64,000 nt of DNA. Source: a virus. Lineage: Duplodnaviria > Caudoviricetes. Below the pieces are notes generated by a model. That model saw nothing but the letters and a program-made list of their open reading frames with translations. It had not been told where the DNA came from and did not search any database. A program made the translations under genes and the position numbers. Shown here one piece after another: positions 11,088 to 64,000 of the stretch. The stretch is taken from positions 12,860 to 76,859 of IMG/VR virus record IMGVR_UViG_3300037067_017580; one strand, 5' to 3'. Numbering within the stretch: the stretch's first letter is position 1; every line of letters starts with the position of its first letter.

Positions 11088-12125
11088 ATGAAAAATAAAA
11101 CAATTTTACTTACCGGGGCTTCTGGAATGCTCGGTTCATCCATAAAAGAAGAGCTTGCCAGCCGTGGCTATAAAAATGTTCTAACCCCGACTTCCAAAGA
11201 ACTTGATTTAATGTCACACTATCTCACATCTAAGTATGTTATACAAAATAATCCAGAAATTATTATACACTGTGCAGCAAAAGTGGGCGGGATCGTTAAT
11301 AATATTACCAACGCCGATGATTTTTATAATATAAATTTTACAATGCAAAACAATATAATTAAGGCTTCTTATGCGCAAAGAGTAAAAGAATTCTACTTTA
11401 TGTCTAGTTCGTGCTGTTACCCTGTGGATTGCTCCCAACCTATGAAAGAACAAGACATCTACGAAGGAGAACCAGAACCCACAAACGCTAAATACGCCAT
11501 AGCAAAGCGCAAAGGGATGATTCTACTTGAAGATTTGACAAAACTAAGCGAGATTATAAATTTTAAGGCTTTAAATATCTGTTTATGTAATCTTTTTGGC
11601 AAAGAAAAAGAATTTGACCCCGCGAAGTGCCACGTAATTCCAGCACTAATTAAAAAACTATATGACGCAAAAACAAATAATCTTCCAGGTTTAGATGTTT
11701 TAGGGACGGGAAACGCCGAAAGAGAGTTTTTATATGTTGAAGATGCCGCTAGAATTATTGTAGATATTATTGAAAAGAGGATTATAGATAAAGAAATATA
11801 CATAAATGTAGGGCGCGGGCAGGCAATTTCGATAAAACAATTAGTGTTTCTTCTCAAAGAAATTGTGGGATATCAGGGAGAAATAAATTTTACTGGTAAA
11901 ACCGAAGGAATTAAGCAAAAACTTCTTGACATTAGCCGACTATTATCGTATAATATAAAATTAGATAATGCAACGATGGATGAAAATATGTATATGAGCT
12001 ATTATCTTAAAAAAACATATGAAAACTTTTTAGTGAAGACAAAATTTTCCTTTCCTGGAATGAAAAAAGGAATAGTAAATATTATTGGAGCGCGTTCTGG
12101 TGTAGGGAAATCTTATTATCGGTAA
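11088..12125 (+). CDS. fcl: GDP-L-fucose synthase-like epimerase/reductase (Fcl/ColC family) with a foreign C-terminal tail
   Basis: GASGMLG, AAKVGGI, SSSCCYP, EPTN..YAIAK, HVIPALI, REFLYVED. Confidence 0.88.
   Translation: MKNKTILLTGASGMLGSSIKEELASRGYKNVLTPTSKELDLMSHYLTSKYVIQNNPEIIIHCAAKVGGIVNNITNADDFYNINFTMQNNIIKASYAQRVKEFYFMSSSCCYPVDCSQPMKEQDIYEGEPEPTNAKYAIAKRKGMILLEDLTKLSEIINFKALNICLCNLFGKEKEFDPAKCHVIPALIKKLYDAKTNNLPGLDVLGTGNAEREFLYVEDAARIIVDIIEKRIIDKEIYINVGRGQAISIKQLVFLLKEIVGYQGEINFTGKTEGIKQKLLDISRLLSYNIKLDNATMDENMYMSYYLKKTYENFLVKTKFSFPGMKKGIVNIIGARSGVGKSYYR
12069..12114 (+). repeat. 46-nt segment similar to the DnaB Walker A coding sequence (55309..55354, - strand)
   Basis: 39/46 identity by manual alignment. 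Confidence 0.85.
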
Positions 12126-12686: not shown

Positions 12687-13548
12687 TAAAAAACTTATAT
12701 TTCCGCCTAATTGGCTCCCATCAAATGTCCATTATTTAGCCATAACTGGAAGCAAAGCATATGGTTGCCATCAAAATAATAAATCCGATGATGATATCGT
12801 AGGATGGTGTTTTCCTCGAAAAGAAACTGTTTTCCCTCATTTAAATGGATATATTCATGGATTTGGCAATCCTCCAGAAAGCTTTGAGGTTTGGCAACAG
12901 CACCATGTAAAAGACGACCAAAAACAATATGATTTCACCATATATAGTATTATTAAATTTGTTCAACTTTGTATGAAGAATAATGCAAATATTTTAGACG
13001 TTTTATTTGTGCCGCAACAATGTGTTATCCATTGCACCCAAACGGCACAAATACTTAGAGATAGAAGAAAAGAATTTTTACACAAAGGAGCATATTCTTC
13101 TTTTCGCGGATATTCGTTTTCACAAATGAATAAAATGGCAACAAAAAATCCAAAAGAAGGTTCTAATAGATATGAAGATATAAAAATAAACAAATGGGAC
13201 AGAAAGTATGGTTACCATCTAGTAAGACTTCTCTTAGAATGTGAACAAATATTAGCTACTGGCGACTTAGACCTTCAACGAGATAGTGAAACATATAAAG
13301 CTATTCGGCGGGGCGACTGGACTGAACAACAAGTAAGAGATTTCTTTGCTCAAAAAGAGAAATATCTTGAAGAACTTTATCAAAAAAGCACTCTTCCACA
13401 TCGGCCAAATGAAGACAAAATAAAAGAAATACTTCTACAGGTGTTAGAACAGCATTATGGAAGCTTAGAAAAAGCAATAACTTTGCCAGAAAAAGAAAGT
13501 ATTTATTTAAAACAAATTGGTGACGCAATAAGAAAACTTGGGTATTAA
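12664..13548 (+). CDS. Pol-beta superfamily nucleotidyltransferase (YcgL/RlaP-like)
   Basis: GSKAYG, SDDDIVG, NANILDVLF, YHLVRLL. Confidence 0.85.
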   Translation: MNLQKLVDKKLIFPPNWLPSNVHYLAITGSKAYGCHQNNKSDDDIVGWCFPRKETVFPHLNGYIHGFGNPPESFEVWQQHHVKDDQKQYDFTIYSIIKFVQLCMKNNANILDVLFVPQQCVIHCTQTAQILRDRRKEFLHKGAYSSFRGYSFSQMNKMATKNPKEGSNRYEDIKINKWDRKYGYHLVRLLLECEQILATGDLDLQRDSETYKAIRRGDWTEQQVRDFFAQKEKYLEELYQKSTLPHRPNEDKIKEILLQVLEQHYGSLEKAITLPEKESIYLKQIGDAIRKLGY

Positions 13549-51602: not shown

Positions 51603-51936
51603 TTTTATTTTCTTCTATAATCTTTTTAAAAATTTGAACATACATAAATTCTTTATCTTTAATACAATAATGATGATATCCGCAAAGAGTTATAACATTA
51701 TCAACATCAAATGACCCTGAAATATTATCTGCTTTTCTTATGATATGATGCATTTGTAAATTTTTCTTATTTTTGCATTTTTTACCATCATCTTTTATAA
51801 ACTGGCACTGATGATTATCTCTTGAAAAGCACTGTTTTTGTGCATCTTTCCATTTATCAGGAAACATTTCTTTAATTGTAAACTTATTTCCTCTTTTTAA
51901 CTCTCTAAATCTTTTTGCCAGTTTTGACCTGTTCAA
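51592..51936 (-). CDS. HNH endonuclease
   Basis: RDNHQCQ...C...HHI...N.ITLC..HH. Confidence 0.85.
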   Translation of the reverse strand: MNRSKLAKRFRELKRGNKFTIKEMFPDKWKDAQKQCFSRDNHQCQFIKDDGKKCKNKKNLQMHHIIRKADNISGSFDVDNVITLCGYHHYCIKDKEFMYVQIFKKIIEENKNGK

Positions 51937-52867
51937 AAACTTTCTCCATATTTATATTTTTATTACCTTTGGACATCATCCAGCAAAGCTTATCACACTG
52001 TTTTTTGCCGCCCTTGTATTTACCATCTTCATTTTTCTCACCACGAAAAGCACAAAAATCACATTTCCAGTAACGATTAGCATTAGATATGGTCTGTTTT
52101 GGTTCCTCGCAAGAAGATATCTCAATCCATTTGTCTTTCATCACACGTAATGTTTTTTTCCACTGGTCTTCTTTATACGTAAATCTAATAGTTTTATCAT
52201 TAAAATAATAAATAACAATTTCTCTATTCTTATATTGCGGATATAAATATTTACAGGCCAAATCATATATTAAAAACTGTATGTCTTTTTGTGACTCTTC
52301 TTGTGTTTTCCCCTGCTTGGCCGTTTTATAGTCTATGATTGAAATAGTATCTTTGTCTTTTTCTATAATCAAGTCCATAAAACCAAAAATACGAAAGATA
52401 TCCCCGCCAATGGCATCAACAAATTCATATGTGCTTACGTCTAATTCTTTTGCTCTGTTTCCTAAATCGTCAAAAATAAGATTGTAATTAAAATCAAACG
52501 TTAAATCAAATTCTTTTTCTATCCCTAATACATTATAATCGAAAGGTGTGCCTTTGTCAAGACAAATCTTAAAAAGATTTTTTATACACCAGTCTTTATC
52601 AAGCCCTTTTAAATTGCACCACTCTTTTTCTTTCTCTGTATTTGTCTTCCAATGTTCTTCTAGTGAACCAAGAATGGCCTCTTTAGTTATGGTTTTGTTT
52701 TTTAAAACTAAATGAGCCATATCTTCCATAACTGAATGAAAAATAGTTCCTTTTAACGCCCCTTCGTTTTGGAACCCTTTGAGCTTACAAATATAACTAA
52801 GATAATATGCAAAATTGCACATATCAAAGTTTTTAATAGAACTTGCTGATAAGTGAGAAATAAGCAT
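51905..52867 (-). CDS. PD-(D/E)XK RecB/AddB/Cas4-like exonuclease
   Basis: LSASS, GTIFH, GFMDL, IIDYKT, Q..IY, CDFC. Confidence 0.85.
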   Translation of the reverse strand: MLISHLSASSIKNFDMCNFAYYLSYICKLKGFQNEGALKGTIFHSVMEDMAHLVLKNKTITKEAILGSLEEHWKTNTEKEKEWCNLKGLDKDWCIKNLFKICLDKGTPFDYNVLGIEKEFDLTFDFNYNLIFDDLGNRAKELDVSTYEFVDAIGGDIFRIFGFMDLIIEKDKDTISIIDYKTAKQGKTQEESQKDIQFLIYDLACKYLYPQYKNREIVIYYFNDKTIRFTYKEDQWKKTLRVMKDKWIEISSCEEPKQTISNANRYWKCDFCAFRGEKNEDGKYKGGKKQCDKLCWMMSKGNKNINMEKVFEQVKTGKKI

Positions 52868-53041
52868 TATTTATTTTCCGGAATTGGATAAATAAATACG
52901 TTTCCACTATCTTTTGTCGCACAAACATAACGCTGCTTTTTAGTTTTCTTACTTTCACAAACTAAACAAATTTCTCCACAAACATCTTCTAGCCACCAAA
53001 AATTCTCTTTAGTCTCTAGTTTTTCCATTTTATTTCTCCTA

Positions 53042-53395
53042 TTAATTGTTTTTCTTTATCAAGCCATCTTCGTTTTCAGATATCAAACTATTCTTAACAT
53101 CTTTGTATGTCGTTCTAACCCACCACATTCGAGGATAATTCCAGCTTTTTGAAACAAGGATTACTTCTTCTCCTGTTAGTTTTAAAATAGCTCTATCGTC
53201 TACTTTAAAATCATCTTTAATAACCACTATTTCTATTTTTTGATCAATCTCTACTTTAGATTCTTTCTTTAAAAAACTAGAAAGTAAAAATCCAATCAAA
53301 AAAACAAGTATAAAAATTAAAATTCTTAATCTATTGTTTCTTTTTTTGCTACTGGAAATAGTTATATTGTCTTGCGACTTCATTTGCTTCATCAT
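53042..53395 (-). CDS. Hypothetical membrane-anchored protein
   Basis: Hydrophobic ILIFILVFLIGFLL; start uncertain. Confidence 0.5.
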   Translation of the reverse strand: MMKQMKSQDNITISSSKKRNNRLRILIFILVFLIGFLLSSFLKKESKVEIDQKIEIVVIKDDFKVDDRAILKLTGEEVILVSKSWNYPRMWWVRTTYKDVKNSLISENEDGLIKKNN

Positions 53396-54440
53396 CGGTC
53401 ATTTCTCCTATGTCTTTTTTTCCATCAATTAAAACTGGTTTAACATTAAAATATCTTGACAACGACATAAATTCTGTTCTTTTTTCATTATTTATTTCAT
53501 TTTTTGTTAAATTATCATCTATAAATTTCTTTCCCGCCTTATCATTGTCTCCAAATAAGTATATCTGTCTTAGTCCGTCCAAACTCATTAGTGTCGAAAA
53601 ATAGTCTTTTGTGGCCGAACCTCCAAGCAGCGCAACTGCGTTAAAGACTCCTATTTGGTGCAACCTCATTAAATCTGGAATTCCCTCAACTAAAACAATG
53701 CTACCAATCTTCTCTACATTATACCTTATATTGTTCAAGTTGTAAAGAGCTTTTTGTGAAAATCCTTTATTTTTTTTCCATTTTATCCAAGTTGACCATC
53801 CTTCGTAGCACTTTTGCCCGTTTTCATGAAACATCTCACAGTTTGGGCATTTATCATAAATAACTCTTCCGGTAAATCCAATTATATCTCCGAGAATATC
53901 TCTTATTGGAAAGACAATCCTATTTGCCATTTCCTTTTTTTCAGCAAATCCACCCTGAAAATAATCTATCGTTTCTTCTGTAAAACCTCTTTTTAAAAAA
54001 TAATCGTGTTTTTTTAGTCTTAATAAATATTTTTCATTGTATACTATTTTCTTTGGAACTTCGTGTTTCTTGTTTTTATTTATAAAACTTAAAATAGACG
54101 CAGCTTCTTCATTCTTTTTTGGCAAATTATTTGGGTCTAGTTTAAATAAATCACATATCCAAGTAACAGAATCTTTAAAATTCTTATTTAAAACTCCACC
54201 AACTAAACCAAGAGGAGAAGATCCATGCTCCTTATCACAAGAACAACTCCAACATTTCCATCTTCCTATATTAGAATAATAAGAAAAACTAGAACGATTA
54301 TATCCATTATGAATGGGGCAACTTCCCCTATATTCATTTCCATTCTTACGAAAAACAAGCCCAAGCTCATTAAAAACAATTTCTATGTTAGTATTGCAAA
54401 CATCATTTAAAAACTGATAGTCTATTCTTACTTTTGGCAT
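53349..54440 (-). CDS. dnaG: DNA primase (CHC2 Zn finger plus TOPRIM)
   Basis: CPIH...WKCWSC, RIVFPIRD, GFTGR, LVEG..D, DNDKAG. Confidence 0.92.
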   Translation of the reverse strand: MPKVRIDYQFLNDVCNTNIEIVFNELGLVFRKNGNEYRGSCPIHNGYNRSSFSYYSNIGRWKCWSCSCDKEHGSSPLGLVGGVLNKNFKDSVTWICDLFKLDPNNLPKKNEEAASILSFINKNKKHEVPKKIVYNEKYLLRLKKHDYFLKRGFTEETIDYFQGGFAEKKEMANRIVFPIRDILGDIIGFTGRVIYDKCPNCEMFHENGQKCYEGWSTWIKWKKNKGFSQKALYNLNNIRYNVEKIGSIVLVEGIPDLMRLHQIGVFNAVALLGGSATKDYFSTLMSLDGLRQIYLFGDNDKAGKKFIDDNLTKNEINNEKRTEFMSLSRYFNVKPVLIDGKKDIGEMTDDEANEVARQYNYFQ

Positions 54441-54448
54441 TTTAAACT

Positions 54449-55984
54449 CTAAAATGGGCTAGTGTGTTCGCCAGTAGAAGCAGGAATATTATTAAGAGCA
54501 ATCTCTAGTCTATTTGTCATTTCTTTTTTTTCGGCAAATCCTACTTGAGAACAACTCATTGTTTTTTGTTCCGTAGCAGAAGTTTTTTCGTATCCATCTG
54601 AATACCTTGATAATCCCATATCTTCAAGCCTAGCAATCCTTTTATCGGCAAGAATTTTAATATACGTATCATCTGGAGTTACTGGGCCAAAACGAGATTT
54701 TGTTATAACTATTTTCATATTGGAATCGCTTTTTTGTTCTTCTCGATCAAGATTTTTAAGAATAGCAAAAGTAGAGGTCAACCATTCAATTCTATCTGAC
54801 TGTGAGGCCACTCCACCAATTTTTTCGATTCCATCACGATTTAGCTGCAAAGTTAAAAGCATCGGAACATTATAACGAACACAAAAATCATGCAAAGAAG
54901 ACATATAAAACCCAATAAGCTGGTACTCTTTAAGATTTTCAAGACCTTTTGTGTTCATCATTTTTAAATAATCATAAACAATAACACAATCTTTTACATT
55001 GCCGTTCTCGTCTTCTCCAACAACTTGACGAACCCATTTTTTCATTGCAATTAAAATTTCTTCAAATGTTTGACCGCCAACATATTTATGATATAGCTGA
55101 ATCTTTTTAAAATATGGCAAATCACCTAAAATCCTATCTTTTTTATTTTGGTCTTTTGAAAACTTACCAGTTTCAATATCATCAATCGTTACTCCTGTTC
55201 TCATTGCGGATAGTCTTCCCATCTGCTGGTCTTTAGAAAGCTCTGTGTCAATATACAAAACAGGAACCCCGTTACTGGCAACGTGATTGGCAATATTGAG
55301 AGCGATTAAAGATTTTCCTACGCCGGGACGCGCTCCAATAATGTTTACAGTTCCCCTGCGAAGACCTCTTCCGATATGAAAATCATAAGTTCTAAAACCT
55401 GTAGGAATCCCAAGATTTTCACAAGGATTACTTGATAAGAAATCTAAATATTCTTCATACGAAGATGCAAATGTGTCAAATTTTTCATTTGGATTAGATG
55501 CTTTTTCAATAACTCCATTACATTGTTTTGAAACTTCAACAAGAAAATCTTCTAAAGAAATATCGTTTCCAGAAAAATCTTCTATGTTTACTTTGGCATT
55601 TTCAATAGCCGCAATTACGTTTCTATAAATAGCTTTTTTCTTTACAGCAAGAACAAATTTATCAAGATTATCAAAATTGACATGCTTTTGTGATAAAACT
55701 TCAAGATAATTATTGTCATCGACAAGGGTAAATGTGCTTTTTTTATTCTTTTCTTTAAGTTGTAGCTTAATTAAGTCAGCGTCAATCTTTTTGTTAGGTT
55801 CTTTATCTAGCAACTCTTTAATAACAAAAAATATATCATTGTCTGTTTTATGAAAAAAATCACTTGGAATTAATCCTTTGTCATCACAAACAATAAGTGC
55901 TTCTTGTCCATATTCAAAAAGAGAACTTAAAACCATCCTCTCTGAAACAACATCAATATTGTCTGGAGAATCACCTTTTTCCAT
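54449..55984 (-). CDS. dnaB: Replicative DNA helicase with C-terminal tail
   Basis: GIPTGF, GARPGVGKS, IDTE, YDYLK, QLNR, KSRFG. Confidence 0.92.
   Translation of the reverse strand: MEKGDSPDNIDVVSERMVLSSLFEYGQEALIVCDDKGLIPSDFFHKTDNDIFFVIKELLDKEPNKKIDADLIKLQLKEKNKKSTFTLVDDNNYLEVLSQKHVNFDNLDKFVLAVKKKAIYRNVIAAIENAKVNIEDFSGNDISLEDFLVEVSKQCNGVIEKASNPNEKFDTFASSYEEYLDFLSSNPCENLGIPTGFRTYDFHIGRGLRRGTVNIIGARPGVGKSLIALNIANHVASNGVPVLYIDTELSKDQQMGRLSAMRTGVTIDDIETGKFSKDQNKKDRILGDLPYFKKIQLYHKYVGGQTFEEILIAMKKWVRQVVGEDENGNVKDCVIVYDYLKMMNTKGLENLKEYQLIGFYMSSLHDFCVRYNVPMLLTLQLNRDGIEKIGGVASQSDRIEWLTSTFAILKNLDREEQKSDSNMKIVITKSRFGPVTPDDTYIKILADKRIARLEDMGLSRYSDGYEKTSATEQKTMSCSQVGFAEKKEMTNRLEIALNNIPASTGEHTSPF
54510..54541 (-). 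repeat. 32-nt segment similar to primase coding sequence (53920..53951)
   Basis: 29/32 identity by manual alignment. Confidence 0.85.
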
Positions 55985-56439
55985 TAATTCTGTCTCTCTT
56001 TCTTTTTTATTATCTCTTCAATTGTGTTTGTAAACCATAAAATTTCCCGATCAATACCCTCAAGAGAAGTTGCTTTCGTTTGGGCTTCAACTACAGCATC
56101 CTGAATTTTTGTTAAAGGTTCTGATTCTGTAATAGCAGATTGATATCTTTCATCCTTATCATAAGAAGAGTAATTCATTGCAAGCGGCTTTGCCCGTTTC
56201 ATAAGTTCAATATTTAAATATCCATAACGGGCTTTCTCTTCGTTATATAACATTTTAAGGTAGATAGCATATTTGCGTAATTTAAACACTGTTTCTTGTA
56301 AATCTTCAATCCCTAATTCAAAAATACTTTTGAAATCTAAACTAAGAATACCTTTTATTTCTTCAATATCAGTATTAATACTAACTAAATGTTTGTCAAC
56401 CCAATCACGATATTCTTGCTTATTCACCTTTATCTCCAT
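55984..56439 (-). CDS. Helical protein, possibly a UvsY-like recombination mediator
   Basis: Coiled-coil composition; lies between recA and dnaB; ATG 56439 preferred. Confidence 0.4.
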   Translation of the reverse strand: MEIKVNKQEYRDWVDKHLVSINTDIEEIKGILSLDFKSIFELGIEDLQETVFKLRKYAIYLKMLYNEEKARYGYLNIELMKRAKPLAMNYSSYDKDERYQSAITESEPLTKIQDAVVEAQTKATSLEGIDREILWFTNTIEEIIKKKERQN

Positions 56440-56632
56440 CAAATTTAGGTATTTCTGTATAATAGTCAAAAGCTTCCACAGAAATGTCCCATCCAAAACA
56501 AGAAAAACAATCGCTGCCATATCCATTTCTAGTTAAACGACCAACAACAACTTGCAAATTGTCTTTATATCTTACAAGAACACTTTCTCCTTGTCTTGGG
56601 CTACTGTTCTCTATATCAATTTTTTTCCACAT
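56420..56632 (-). CDS. DUF551-like small phage protein
   Basis: MWKKI...P..GESVLV pattern. Confidence 0.5.
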   Translation of the reverse strand: MWKKIDIENSSPRQGESVLVRYKDNLQVVVGRLTRNGYGSDCFSCFGWDISVEAFDYYTEIPKFDGDKGE

Positions 56633-56633
56633 A

Positions 56634-57029
56634 TTAAATATCTTTGGCCTCCTCTATAGAATCAACAATAATAAGCTCAATCCCATTCAGATCACACCAG
56701 TTCTTCTTAATTATATCACGGTTTTTTTGTCTGTCAAATCCTTTCTGATCTTTATGAAAAAACTTTGAAAATTCATAGTGCTGCCGACCATTAACCTCTA
56801 TCGCCAAAGATCGTTGTGGAATAAAAAAATCAATCTTTAGACCACCAGAACCGGGAACCGTCCACTCTTCAAGAATAGTGCAAAACTTATATTTATTTCG
56901 TAAAATTTGTCCAACATCGTATTGAATTCCGCTTTTGCAAAATTCTTTTGGCCTAACTGGAAAATCGGAAATAGATAACGAAACTGTTACGCTATTTCCC
57001 TCTATGTCAAGCATTTTTGGCATAAACAA
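56634..57029 (-). CDS. Vsr/DUF559-like endonuclease
   Basis: IDFFIP..SLAIEVNGRQH...QK.RD..K..WC..NGIEL. Confidence 0.8.
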   Translation of the reverse strand: MFMPKMLDIEGNSVTVSLSISDFPVRPKEFCKSGIQYDVGQILRNKYKFCTILEEWTVPGSGGLKIDFFIPQRSLAIEVNGRQHYEFSKFFHKDQKGFDRQKNRDIIKKNWCDLNGIELIIVDSIEEAKDI

Positions 57030-58083
57030 TTTCCTCTGCTTTTGTCTTAATGCTATTAAAGAATTCAGGATTTTCTCTCATCATGGCAATAACTGCTTTT
57101 TGTCCCTGAACCTTTTCTTCTCCAATAGTATACCATCCTGCGCCACCCTTAGTAATAAGTCCAAATTGATCTGCAAGATTAAATAAATCTGTCATGTAAT
57201 CAAATCCATGACCATAAAGCAAGGGAACAGTAACTTTAATCTTAGGCTTGCCCATAATCGTTGTTTCTACACAAAATGTAACATTGTGTCCAATTTGCTC
57301 TCCGTTATCGTCAGTTATTTCTCGTTTATCTCCATCTTCTTTCGCCCATGGAAACCTAAGCCGGATAATTGTATCTGCGGCATATTGAATATATGTTCCA
57401 CCTGGATTTACAATCTTTGGAGCGCCATGTCCACCAATATTAAGAGCCTGTTTCTCGTGATTAATAAAAAGAACAGTAGCATTATGAACGACAAGAAGCG
57501 GCGTTATCTTTTTAAGACAAGTTTGTAAATATCTTGCAGTTTCTGCGACTTGTGCATCTCCAATATCTCCGTCGTTTTCTTTGACTCCAAGCAATGCTCC
57601 AATAGAATCAAAAATATGAAAAGACTCAGGAAAATCTTGAATATTAGATTCTAAAATTTGCAAATAATCAACAGATGTAAGAATTTTTTCTTCGGAAGAT
57701 TTAATTAGATAAATATTATCTCTGGTAAGACCATCAATGCTATTTAAAAGACTATCGCTTAGTCTATTTTCTACCATATAATAAAAAACTTTTGTGTTCG
57801 GAAACTGATTTTTTGCAAATTGAGCAATCTGTAATGCACATGTAGTTTTGCCAAGTTTTGGAATAGCACTCAAATGACAAGTCTGCCCTCTCAGTAGTCC
57901 TCCACCAAGAGCATAATCCCAAGACGGAAGAGTGCGAATAATTCCTCTATCTTTGTCCTTGTAAGAAGAAAGAGGGATGCAAAAAGACCCTCCAAACTTT
58001 TTATGTCCGCTCTTGACAACCTTATTAAGAGTTTTATCTCCTTCTTCGACAACTTCTTCATCTTCTTTTTGTTTTTTAGCCAT
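57007..58083 (-). CDS. recA: RecA/UvsX-like recombinase
   Basis: DYALGGGL, KLGKTT, FDSIGAL, FINH, PGG, G.WY, QG. Confidence 0.9.
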   Translation of the reverse strand: MAKKQKEDEEVVEEGDKTLNKVVKSGHKKFGGSFCIPLSSYKDKDRGIIRTLPSWDYALGGGLLRGQTCHLSAIPKLGKTTCALQIAQFAKNQFPNTKVFYYMVENRLSDSLLNSIDGLTRDNIYLIKSSEEKILTSVDYLQILESNIQDFPESFHIFDSIGALLGVKENDGDIGDAQVAETARYLQTCLKKITPLLVVHNATVLFINHEKQALNIGGHGAPKIVNPGGTYIQYAADTIIRLRFPWAKEDGDKREITDDNGEQIGHNVTFCVETTIMGKPKIKVTVPLLYGHGFDYMTDLFNLADQFGLITKGGAGWYTIGEEKVQGQKAVIAMMRENPEFFNSIKTKAEEIVYAKNA

Positions 58084-60134: not shown

Positions 60135-60170
60135 AATATATCTGTAAGTATAATTACTTACAGATATATT
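60135..60170. repeat. Perfect 16-bp inverted repeat with 4-nt loop
   Basis: AATATATCTGTAAGTA-TAAT-TACTTACAGATATATT. Confidence 0.9.
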
Positions 60171-60179
60171 AACATTAAT

Positions 60180-60231
60180 TTTCTCTTTGTTGTTTCTCTT
60201 TATCTTACTTTCTCTTTATTATTTCTCTTTA
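60180..60231 (+). repeat. Four TTTCTCTTT(A/G) direct repeats (iteron-like)
   Basis: Starts at 60180, 60193, 60209, 60222. Confidence 0.8.
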
Positions 60232-60577
60232 TTCGTAAAAAAGTTATTTAAAACACTTGTTTTAAACTGTTGTTTAAATAGTATATATTTTAATCTTGTT
60301 ATCGTTTTAGATAAAGATATGGTTGCAGACATTAGTTAGGCATGGCCTAAAAAACGGATTTGGCTGGCGTGGTTAAATTCTTTTTGCTTTATGGTACATA
60401 TTCTTGGTATGTAAGTTTTGAATTGAAATTCAAACGATTAAATAGAAAAACATAAAAAATATAAAATTGGCTTTAAAAACAAAAAAACCACGTGCAAACG
60501 GGGTTAATAATAACAAAAATGTAGTTTTGATAATGAATAGATACGACTCCGCTTTTCCCCCTGCATAATACAAGTAA

Positions 60578-63022: not shown

Positions 63023-63982
63023 TTATGTTGTTCCGGTCATAATAAATGTTATTATTCCACTTTGTTCTGGAGAATATAGATTATATTCGATAGGTACTAC
63101 TCCATAATATCCAGCTTGGTATATGTCTAAATTATTTTCTTCTAAGCCAATGACATTTGACAAAGTGGATCCACGAGAGTAAAAATCTAATAATTCTTCT
63201 GAATTTTTTAATTCTTTGCTATTGACCCAAAAAGATATTTCTCCAAACGAATAGCCTAATTCTGTGGCGATATATAAAGAGATATTTCCGCTTGTACCAA
63301 TTTCTCCCATACAATCAGAATAAATAGAAAAACTTTCATTTAATTGATTTTCGCCACTGTCAAGAACATAGATATTGAATGGCATATTACCAGAAACGCC
63401 AACATATTCTCCGCTATCTTCCCTTGCTTTTATATAAAAAGATATGTCGACAAAGCCATTTTGATAATATGAAAATTCTCCAGATTCACTAAGTATTGAT
63501 AATTCATAGAATGGAAGGATTCCACTTGTATCATTAAGCCCTCTTTGATATAATGATAAATATTCATCTTTTGAATCTGTAGAATATTGGTAAATGCTAA
63601 AAATACCGCTTGGGCTTTCATATCCGCTTTGATAAAATGGCAAAATACCTGATTCTGTACTTGCTCGGGTATAAAAAGAAAAATCTTCTAAAAACGATCC
63701 TCTTGTCATTTCGTATATTGTTATATATCCGCTTTCTGTTATCCCTCCTCTTTCATATATACTTATATTGTTTATTTCAGAACCAAGTCCATATATATAT
63801 GTGTTTAGATTGTTTTCGGTCAAAATTGGCCCAGAAATATAAAATGGAAAATTACCAGAAGTATAAATACCAGTAGCTTCTATTGCATTCATATAAAATG
63901 TGATATCTACAAATCCATTTTGATAAATACTAATTTCTTGTCCGGAACCAATAGGATATTCTCCAAAAGAACAAAAAGACAT
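63023..63982 (-). CDS. Repetitive acidic protein, probably virion-associated
   Basis: Recurring SG-x-hydrophobic-x-(F/I)Y units; duplicated YQNGFVDI(T/S)FY; almost no Lys. Confidence 0.55.
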   Translation of the reverse strand: MSFCSFGEYPIGSGQEISIYQNGFVDITFYMNAIEATGIYTSGNFPFYISGPILTENNLNTYIYGLGSEINNISIYERGGITESGYITIYEMTRGSFLEDFSFYTRASTESGILPFYQSGYESPSGIFSIYQYSTDSKDEYLSLYQRGLNDTSGILPFYELSILSESGEFSYYQNGFVDISFYIKAREDSGEYVGVSGNMPFNIYVLDSGENQLNESFSIYSDCMGEIGTSGNISLYIATELGYSFGEISFWVNSKELKNSEELLDFYSRGSTLSNVIGLEENNLDIYQAGYYGVVPIEYNLYSPEQSGIITFIMTGTT

Positions 63983-64000
63983 AAATTGTTCTTCAAAATT

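Follow-up and report, generated by a model that had tools for sequence, protein, structure and literature searches.

A primase-derived segment in the C-terminal tail of a phage DnaB helicase, best explained as a tolerated templated micro-insertion

In the genome of a tailed virus (Duplodnaviria; Caudoviricetes) known from the IMG/VR record IMGVR_UViG_3300037067_017580, the gene for a DnaB-type replicative helicase carries in its 3' part a short in-frame copy of a segment of the primase gene that follows it. The window analysed here comprises the last 64 kb (positions 12,860 to 76,859) of this single contig of 76,859 nucleotides (nt), which has a G+C content of 31.5%, is linear according to IMG/VR and is about 45% complete according to CheckV; positions are those of the window. 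Both genes lie on the minus strand, with dnaB upstream, the primase downstream and a gap of 8 nt between them. The features of this locus on which the analysis is built are as follows.

54449..55984, minus strand: dnaB-type replicative helicase gene, 511 aa, with Pfam matches to DnaB (PF00772, E 7e-7) and DnaB_C (PF03796, E 3e-23).
53349..54440, minus strand: DnaG-type primase gene, 363 aa, with Pfam matches to Zn_ribbon_DnaG, DNAG_N and Toprim_2/4, and PDB matches to 2au3, 5guj and 4e2k.
53920..53977, minus strand: source tract, primase codons 155-174 (end of a helix, QGGFA, short loop, beginning of the RIVFPI strand).
54510..54567, minus strand: derived copy of the primase segment, 58 nt, DnaB codons 473-492, 45/58 identical to 53920-53977.
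54510..54541, minus strand: high-identity core of the DnaB copy, 29/32, encoding GFAEKKEMTNR.

The identity of the two genes is well founded. In the helicase, PF00772 and PF03796 match above their cut-offs and the Walker A motif GARPGVGKS is conserved in the alignment; the protein has 939 homologues, with a top identity of 48%. In the primase, PF01807, PF08275 and PF13155/PF13662 match above their cut-offs, and solved DnaG cores were matched as well. The original prediction, made from the letters of the DNA, had described an identity of 29/32 between 54510-54541 and 53920-53951, on the same strand and 590 nt apart, and had read both copies in frame. The sequence confirms the match, and the in-frame reading is borne out on the minus strand, where DnaB residues 480-493 are QVGFAEKKEMTNRL and primase residues 162-175 are QGGFAEKKEMANRI. 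The homology exceeds the 32 nt first noticed and extends in the 5' direction to a tract of 58 nt (45/58 identical, 54510-54567 against 53920-53977); a gapped extension 3' of the core was dropped, because it adds only 2 score units.

Several statistics bear on whether two such tracts could resemble each other by accident. In a word-7 self-BLAST of the whole contig, the core pair scores 44.9 bits (E 1.8e-4) and is the second-best non-palindromic repeat. When the genome was shuffled by Markov models of order 3 and order 5 (80 shuffles), a top score of 44.9 was reached once, a top score of 48.8 never, and two hits of at least 44.9 never occurred together. The full tract is more distinctive, with a blastn E of 2.8e-9 and a local alignment score of 32-34, where 500 codon shuffles gave 13.8 on average and 23 at most. 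The eight additional 5' codons match at 15 of their 24 nt (P 0.0016, the null being random in-frame coding windows of the genome). Of the 13 differences 11 are transitions, a class that should make up about 30% between unrelated A+T-rich sequences (p 7e-5), and this bias indicates that the 58-nt tract is homologous by descent. A second primase-like word in the DnaB tail, MGLSRY (residues 456-461, 54602-54619), was compared with the family-invariant primase MSLSRY (residues 325-330, 53451-53468) on the minus strand and set aside (13/18 nt, protein E 3.5); this likeness is probably due to chance.

As for the direction of copying, comparison with related proteins identifies the primase copy as the source, because the segment sits there at a family-conserved position. 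Seven primase relatives (33-40% identity) have at the same position the pattern FQ[CG]G[FILY][AV]...R[IV]VFP, and residues F161, G164, R174, V176, F177 and P178 are invariant across them. Solved primases place the tract in the N-terminal subdomain of the DnaG catalytic core, where "FQIGYA" and "RNRVMFPI" stand on either side of a longer loop. The short EKKEMA loop of the present primase is, against the seven relatives, found in this phage lineage only, so that this primase, or a very close one, was the donor. By the same kind of comparison the copy in DnaB is the derived one, a net insertion of some 20 codons seen in this lineage only, because the tail has an excess equal to the copied codons and its homologues lack the motif. 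Counted from a common anchor over 120 aligned homologues, the tail beyond the last conserved anchor measures 57 aa here and 15-37 aa (median 33) in the 119 others, and this excess matches the 19-20 copied codons. A check of conservation across relatives had been proposed together with the original prediction, and it found the tail insert in none of the 119 DnaB homologues, the closest (39-48% identity) included. The motif is also missing from the DnaB of P0003, P0005 and P0007, which carry a primase relative on the same contigs, and from that of L001, a relative with the same gene order. Scans of viral and metagenome contig collections with DnaB or primase peptide patterns returned no sister genome, and a degenerate DNA pattern for GFAEKKEM.N had no match in these collections. 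Identity to the nearest protein relatives is 48% for DnaB and 41% for the primase, and cultured phages, searched by tblastn, remain below 30%.

The part of the helicase that received the copy is described by one further feature.

54449..54601, minus strand: DnaB C-terminal tail, residues 462-511 and stop codon, predicted disordered (predicted local distance difference test, pLDDT, <50).

In the AlphaFold2 model the pLDDT stays below 50 across residues 462-511, with a single weak helix at 489-498, and the tail sequences differ freely among the closest DnaB relatives. On this model, the insertion site would be a tolerant linker between the folded helicase and its tip, the place where an in-frame insertion would be most easily borne. 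The copy had been said to stand at the very end of the gene; it does lie in the C-terminal tail, but 19 codons still separate it from the stop. No other templates were found for the remainder of the DnaB tail. The tip itself shows a pattern of its own in the family, since 103 of the 120 DnaB homologues (P0008-P0120) end in an acidic sequence of the ...[IV]PF[VE] type, e.g. ...DEEIPFV or ...NDQIPFE. The six closest DnaB relatives are mostly without this acidic tip, and the helicase of this phage (54449-54490) ends in ...NNIPASTGEHTSPF, i.e. ...TSPF. By analogy with SSB, the tips of the homologues suggest a handle for a replisome partner.

The explanation that we favour, with a probability of roughly two in three, is a one-off templated micro-insertion, by template switching or by short-patch illegitimate recombination, which was tolerated in a disordered and fast-evolving linker. 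Most likely, the copied fragment is a neutral scar with no regulatory role. In a single event, some 58-60 nt (20 codons) of the primase would have been copied to a place 590 nt further upstream, on the same strand, in the 3' part of dnaB; or a co-infecting sister phage may have supplied the fragment from its own copy of the gene. At a stalled fork, or at a break in the dnaB tail, a free 3' end would anneal by microhomology to the primase, be extended by a few dozen bases (about 60 nt) and then return. Alternatively, a short single-stranded primase fragment might be incorporated at the fork, in the manner of SPDIR (short-patch double illegitimate recombination). Such an insertion would survive in a disordered, length-variable linker between the RecA-like domain and the C-terminal tip, with the frame open to the tip, and the copy would since have drifted, mainly by transitions. 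If the fragment had been placed at random, the chance of finding it in the same orientation and within 600 nt on either side of its source (a span of 1,200 nt) would be about 0.8% by arithmetic, so that the short distance and the shared orientation favour a local template.

The contig holds a second fragment of this kind, in the tail of the fcl gene.

12075..12114, plus strand: Walker A segment of dnaB copied into the fcl tail, from 55309-55348 on the minus strand; 35/40 identical, 48.8 bits.

That a second gene carries an in-frame piece of a replisome motif had been part of the original prediction, and the piece was re-derived here as a Walker A repeat of 48.8 bits, the best dispersed repeat of the contig. 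All five of its differences are transitions, and four are synonymous in the dnaB frame; by its sequence, the fragment fits a functional sister dnaB as donor. The two fragments differ in their placement: that of fcl lies 43 kb from its source and is inverted, whereas that of DnaB lies near its source and in the same orientation. No third fragment was found by a nucleotide or a six-frame protein self-scan of the contig, where the next-best repeats are at shuffle level and consist of paralogue motifs or internal protein repeats, with no gene-tail grafts. Since the contig is about 45% complete, the count of two fragments, like the absence of a reverse transcriptase reported below, covers less than half of the phage genome. 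Of the recurrent micro-duplication on replication genes that had been proposed, the micro-duplication fits, in the form of about 20 derived codons for which the primase was the template, while the recurrence rests on two events. A genome-wide scan for self-repeats had been suggested at the same time; it brought up only these two fragments, whose preference for gene tails and conserved motifs can be explained in ordinary ways. An insertion has its best chance in a tolerant gene tail, provided that the frame stays open, and fragments can be recognised only while their source evolves slowly, which favours conserved replisome motifs.

Some observations weigh against a one-off, neutral micro-insertion. 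Both fragments have their sources in the adjacent dnaB-primase module, and the second would fall by chance in the same 2.6-kb module with a probability of about 0.03. Both are read in the frame of the donor, for which the joint chance is about 1/12 among open frames (three of six frames are open for the primase fragment and four of six for the Walker A fragment). Neither the shared module nor the donor frame would be predicted from a purely random process, but both departures are mild. In addition, the pattern scans turned up no sister genome or pre-insertion allele from which the junction microhomologies could be read; ACRGAA on the left and GATTG on the right are candidate junction matches, and the mechanism and the neutrality are inferred.

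The copy has also diverged unevenly, with 10 differences in the 5' 26 nt and 3 in the 3' 32 nt (Fisher 0.012, with the boundary set after seeing the data). Changes in the 5' half are mostly non-synonymous and include the loss of the equivalent of the family-invariant F161, a decay as expected of a released copy. In the core, two of the three differences are synonymous, and the third, A to T, gives a residue that is also present in the primase of a relative. The density of synonymous differences is about the same in the two halves, so the contrast lies in the non-synonymous sites. This unevenness, which also counts against a purely neutral scar, could reflect selection on GFAEKKEM.NR, a cluster of errors made in the copying event or a later short gene conversion. 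At a tail-branch rate of half the synonymous divergence, about 4.7 non-synonymous changes would be expected in the core and one or two are seen (P about 0.05, by our own estimate); this deficit is too small to decide the matter, and the counts are insufficient for a test of non-synonymous against synonymous rates (dN/dS).

Among the alternatives, the one that survives best, though unlikely, is a tandem duplication of 590 nt followed by a deletion of 530 nt that left 20 codons in frame. The duplication would have arisen by unequal crossing-over, possibly with a sister phage, and would have run from the end of the dnaB tail to primase codon 175. By construction, the distance between copy and source would then equal the length of the duplicated unit; the intermediate would be viable, with dnaB and primase both intact, and among the genes of the phage are those for a RecA-like recombinase and a PD-(D/E)XK nuclease. 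Tandem duplication with imprecise collapse is common in phage genomes. This course nevertheless requires two illegitimate events. As the tail has cleanly gained about 20 codons and lost none, the deletion and the duplicated unit would also have to share their left-hand boundary. No other remnant of the first unit is detectable in the tail.

It is doubtful that the insert is a lineage-specific peptide under selection, by which the DnaB tail would tether or regulate the primase or another replisome partner, for example as a decoy of the docking surface that the primase offers to its own zinc-binding domain. The 11-codon core keeps 10 of its 11 residues, and the adjacent copied codons are down to two of eight. 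The primase is short, ending about 35 residues beyond its Toprim domain, and a C-terminal helicase-binding domain, as in bacterial DnaG, was not found in it, there being no Pfam or PDB match past residue ~326. The tails of the family look like docking tails, with a tip like the C-terminal peptide of SSB (SSB-Ct) in 103 of 120; in E. coli this peptide, DDDIPF, binds DnaG and other partners (PMC3632105, PMC5872125). Against these points, 119 homologues work without the peptide, and the primase segment is a strand-loop-strand of the N-terminal subdomain of the catalytic core and is not a known interaction surface. The substitution counts are too few for dN/dS, and the tail is modelled as disordered apart from the weak helix mentioned above. 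A predicted complex of the primase (8-row alignment) with DnaB 450-511 had a score of 0.25 and a mark of 0.32, which gives no verdict, and it was used neither for nor against binding.

The selected regulatory system or primase mimic offered in the original prediction thus has no positive support, given the absence of the insert from the homologues, the low confidence of the tail and the lack of either a promoter-like site or an unusual RNA fold. No promoter-like site was found on the coding strand at either copy, and the RNA fold around the dnaB stop and the primase start is no better than that of shuffles (z -0.18). The same prediction had seen no flanking repeat, and none was found. With two copies only, no flanking repeats and no promoter, the pair does not qualify as a repeated regulatory element, be it a promoter, an operator or a CRISPR-like array.

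The two copies nonetheless have features that could act at the level of DNA or RNA. Each contains an in-frame heptamer of the dnaX type, A_AAA_AAA or A_AAA_AAG (54521-54529 and 53931-53939, minus strand), and in each a TAG stands in the -1 frame 4-5 codons past the heptamer; a slip there would yield a tail-less DnaB, or a primase cut behind its zinc-binding part. A crossover inside the core would leave an open reading frame (ORF) of 681 aa that joins DnaB to a primase without the zinc-binding domain. It is very improbable that the repeat serves such an end, whether a repeat-mediated deletion that fuses the helicase to a zinc-finger-less primase or a dnaX-like -1 frameshift. A stretch of 32 nt with three mismatches is a poor substrate for recombination, and the fusion protein would want the zinc-binding domain; in-frame A_AAA_AAR heptamers number 30 in the ORFs of the contig, no stable downstream fold that might stimulate slippage is present at the copies, and the relatives have neither feature. 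The 681-aa fusion ORF is possibly a by-product and not a purpose. No DnaB homologue of at least 896 residues was found that would point to a fused helicase-primase ancestor, which is weak evidence. Finally, chance similarity or an assembly artefact is scarcely credible, for although the core has low complexity and is rich in T and A, its score was equalled in one of 80 shuffled genomes and the contig comes from a metagenome assembly, the 58-nt tract lies far above all codon shuffles and bears the transitions of common descent, the exact runs between the copies do not exceed 8 nt and are too short for a k-mer mis-join, and the ORF stays open to a family-typical ...PF end in a tail whose excess length equals the tract.

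The surroundings of the two genes are those of a replication module. On the minus strand, a RecA-like gene (57007-58083), two small ORFs, dnaB and the primase follow one another, and 3' of the primase lie a PD-(D/E)XK nuclease, an HNH protein and a split DnaE. Much of this order is shared with L001 (L001:2214-7700 against window 51905-57029), at 36-46% identity. Common to both are a protein of 126/131 aa, a protein of 152/180 aa, DnaB, the primase and the PD-(D/E)XK nuclease, and L001 has in addition an acidic 223-aa ORF ahead of dnaB and a dNMP-kinase-like gene behind the primase. Two further repeats lie elsewhere in the window. At 60135-60170 there is an imperfect palindrome of 36 nt, 89% self-complementary, which at 46.8 bits is the second-strongest self-match in the contig; it is followed by a 24-nt tandem pair at 60180-60232, and together they could be a candidate origin or operator. 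A direct repeat of 53 nt (79%) at 63415-63467 and 63874-63926, spaced by 459 nt, lies in the ORF 63026-64000 (minus strand), which is truncated by the contig end; both of its units encode YQNGFVDI[ST]FY, and it is an internal domain repeat.

Taken as a scar, the DnaB insert is a clean natural templated micro-insertion in a phage, in which donor, recipient, direction and size are all legible in one contig. It would illustrate how disordered gene tails collect sequence debris, and how this debris comes to resemble conserved motifs, since only slowly evolving sources stay recognisable; as such it may help to calibrate similar findings in other sequences. A bolder proposal, and a long shot, is that GFAEKKEM.NR has been kept by selection as a new, lineage-specific helicase handle for a primase that lacks a helicase-binding domain and, more broadly, that single strands of the dnaB-primase module are preferentially captured into gene tails. 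Were this true, captured fragments of the module would be raw material for new replisome contacts, and a functional peptide would be a helicase-primase contact born of a copying error.

Among known systems, diversity-generating retroelements resemble this locus in that they have a direct repeat whose copies have diverged, one of them lying near a gene's 3' end. They are unlike it in that the tract here is short and the other copy is a segment of the catalytic core of an essential enzyme. The locus does not qualify as such an element: the contig, about 45% of the genome, has no PF00078 match, in agreement with the remark in the original prediction that no reverse transcriptase gene is visible, and the differences are not confined to adenines, which number only 3 of 13 with the primase as template, or 7 of 13 with the tail as template. 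Acidic docking tails, such as SSB-Ct and the tails of the phage T7 proteins gp4 and gp2.5, which are acidic and end in Phe, are like the recipient site in DnaB in being flexible and in having an aromatic tip. This likeness concerns the tail that was hit and not the fragment, which is non-acidic and has no counterpart there.

Closer parallels are found among mutational events. Templated insertions arise through template switching at microhomology (PMC8421209). The locus resembles a template switch of the type of microhomology-mediated break-induced replication or fork stalling and template switching (MMBIR/FoSTeS), in which tens of bases are copied from a nearby template before the strand returns (PMC8421209). 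Template switching is error-prone and could explain a cluster of mutations at one end of the copy. The signature described in PMC8421209, an inverted copy with a template at most 100 bp away, is not what is seen here, where a direct copy stands 590 nt from its template. The other parallel is SPDIR. According to one report (bioRxiv 10.1101/2023.11.22.568220, which cites Harms et al. 2016), intragenomic or foreign single strands that anneal at extended microhomologies give rise to microindels of 3 to about 100 bp. In that account, SPDIR is like the present case in its short ectopic patch and its donor from the same or a foreign genome, uses mismatched extended microhomologies, and gives clustered polymorphisms or a small insertion; it was shown experimentally in Acinetobacter baylyi and not in phages. 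The nearby, co-oriented donor suits a local template switch at least as well. With a short ectopic patch of 58 nt, a donor 590 nt away and a net insertion of about 20 codons, the DnaB tail has the makings of a templated microindel, and adds a further instance to a kind of mutational event that is already known.

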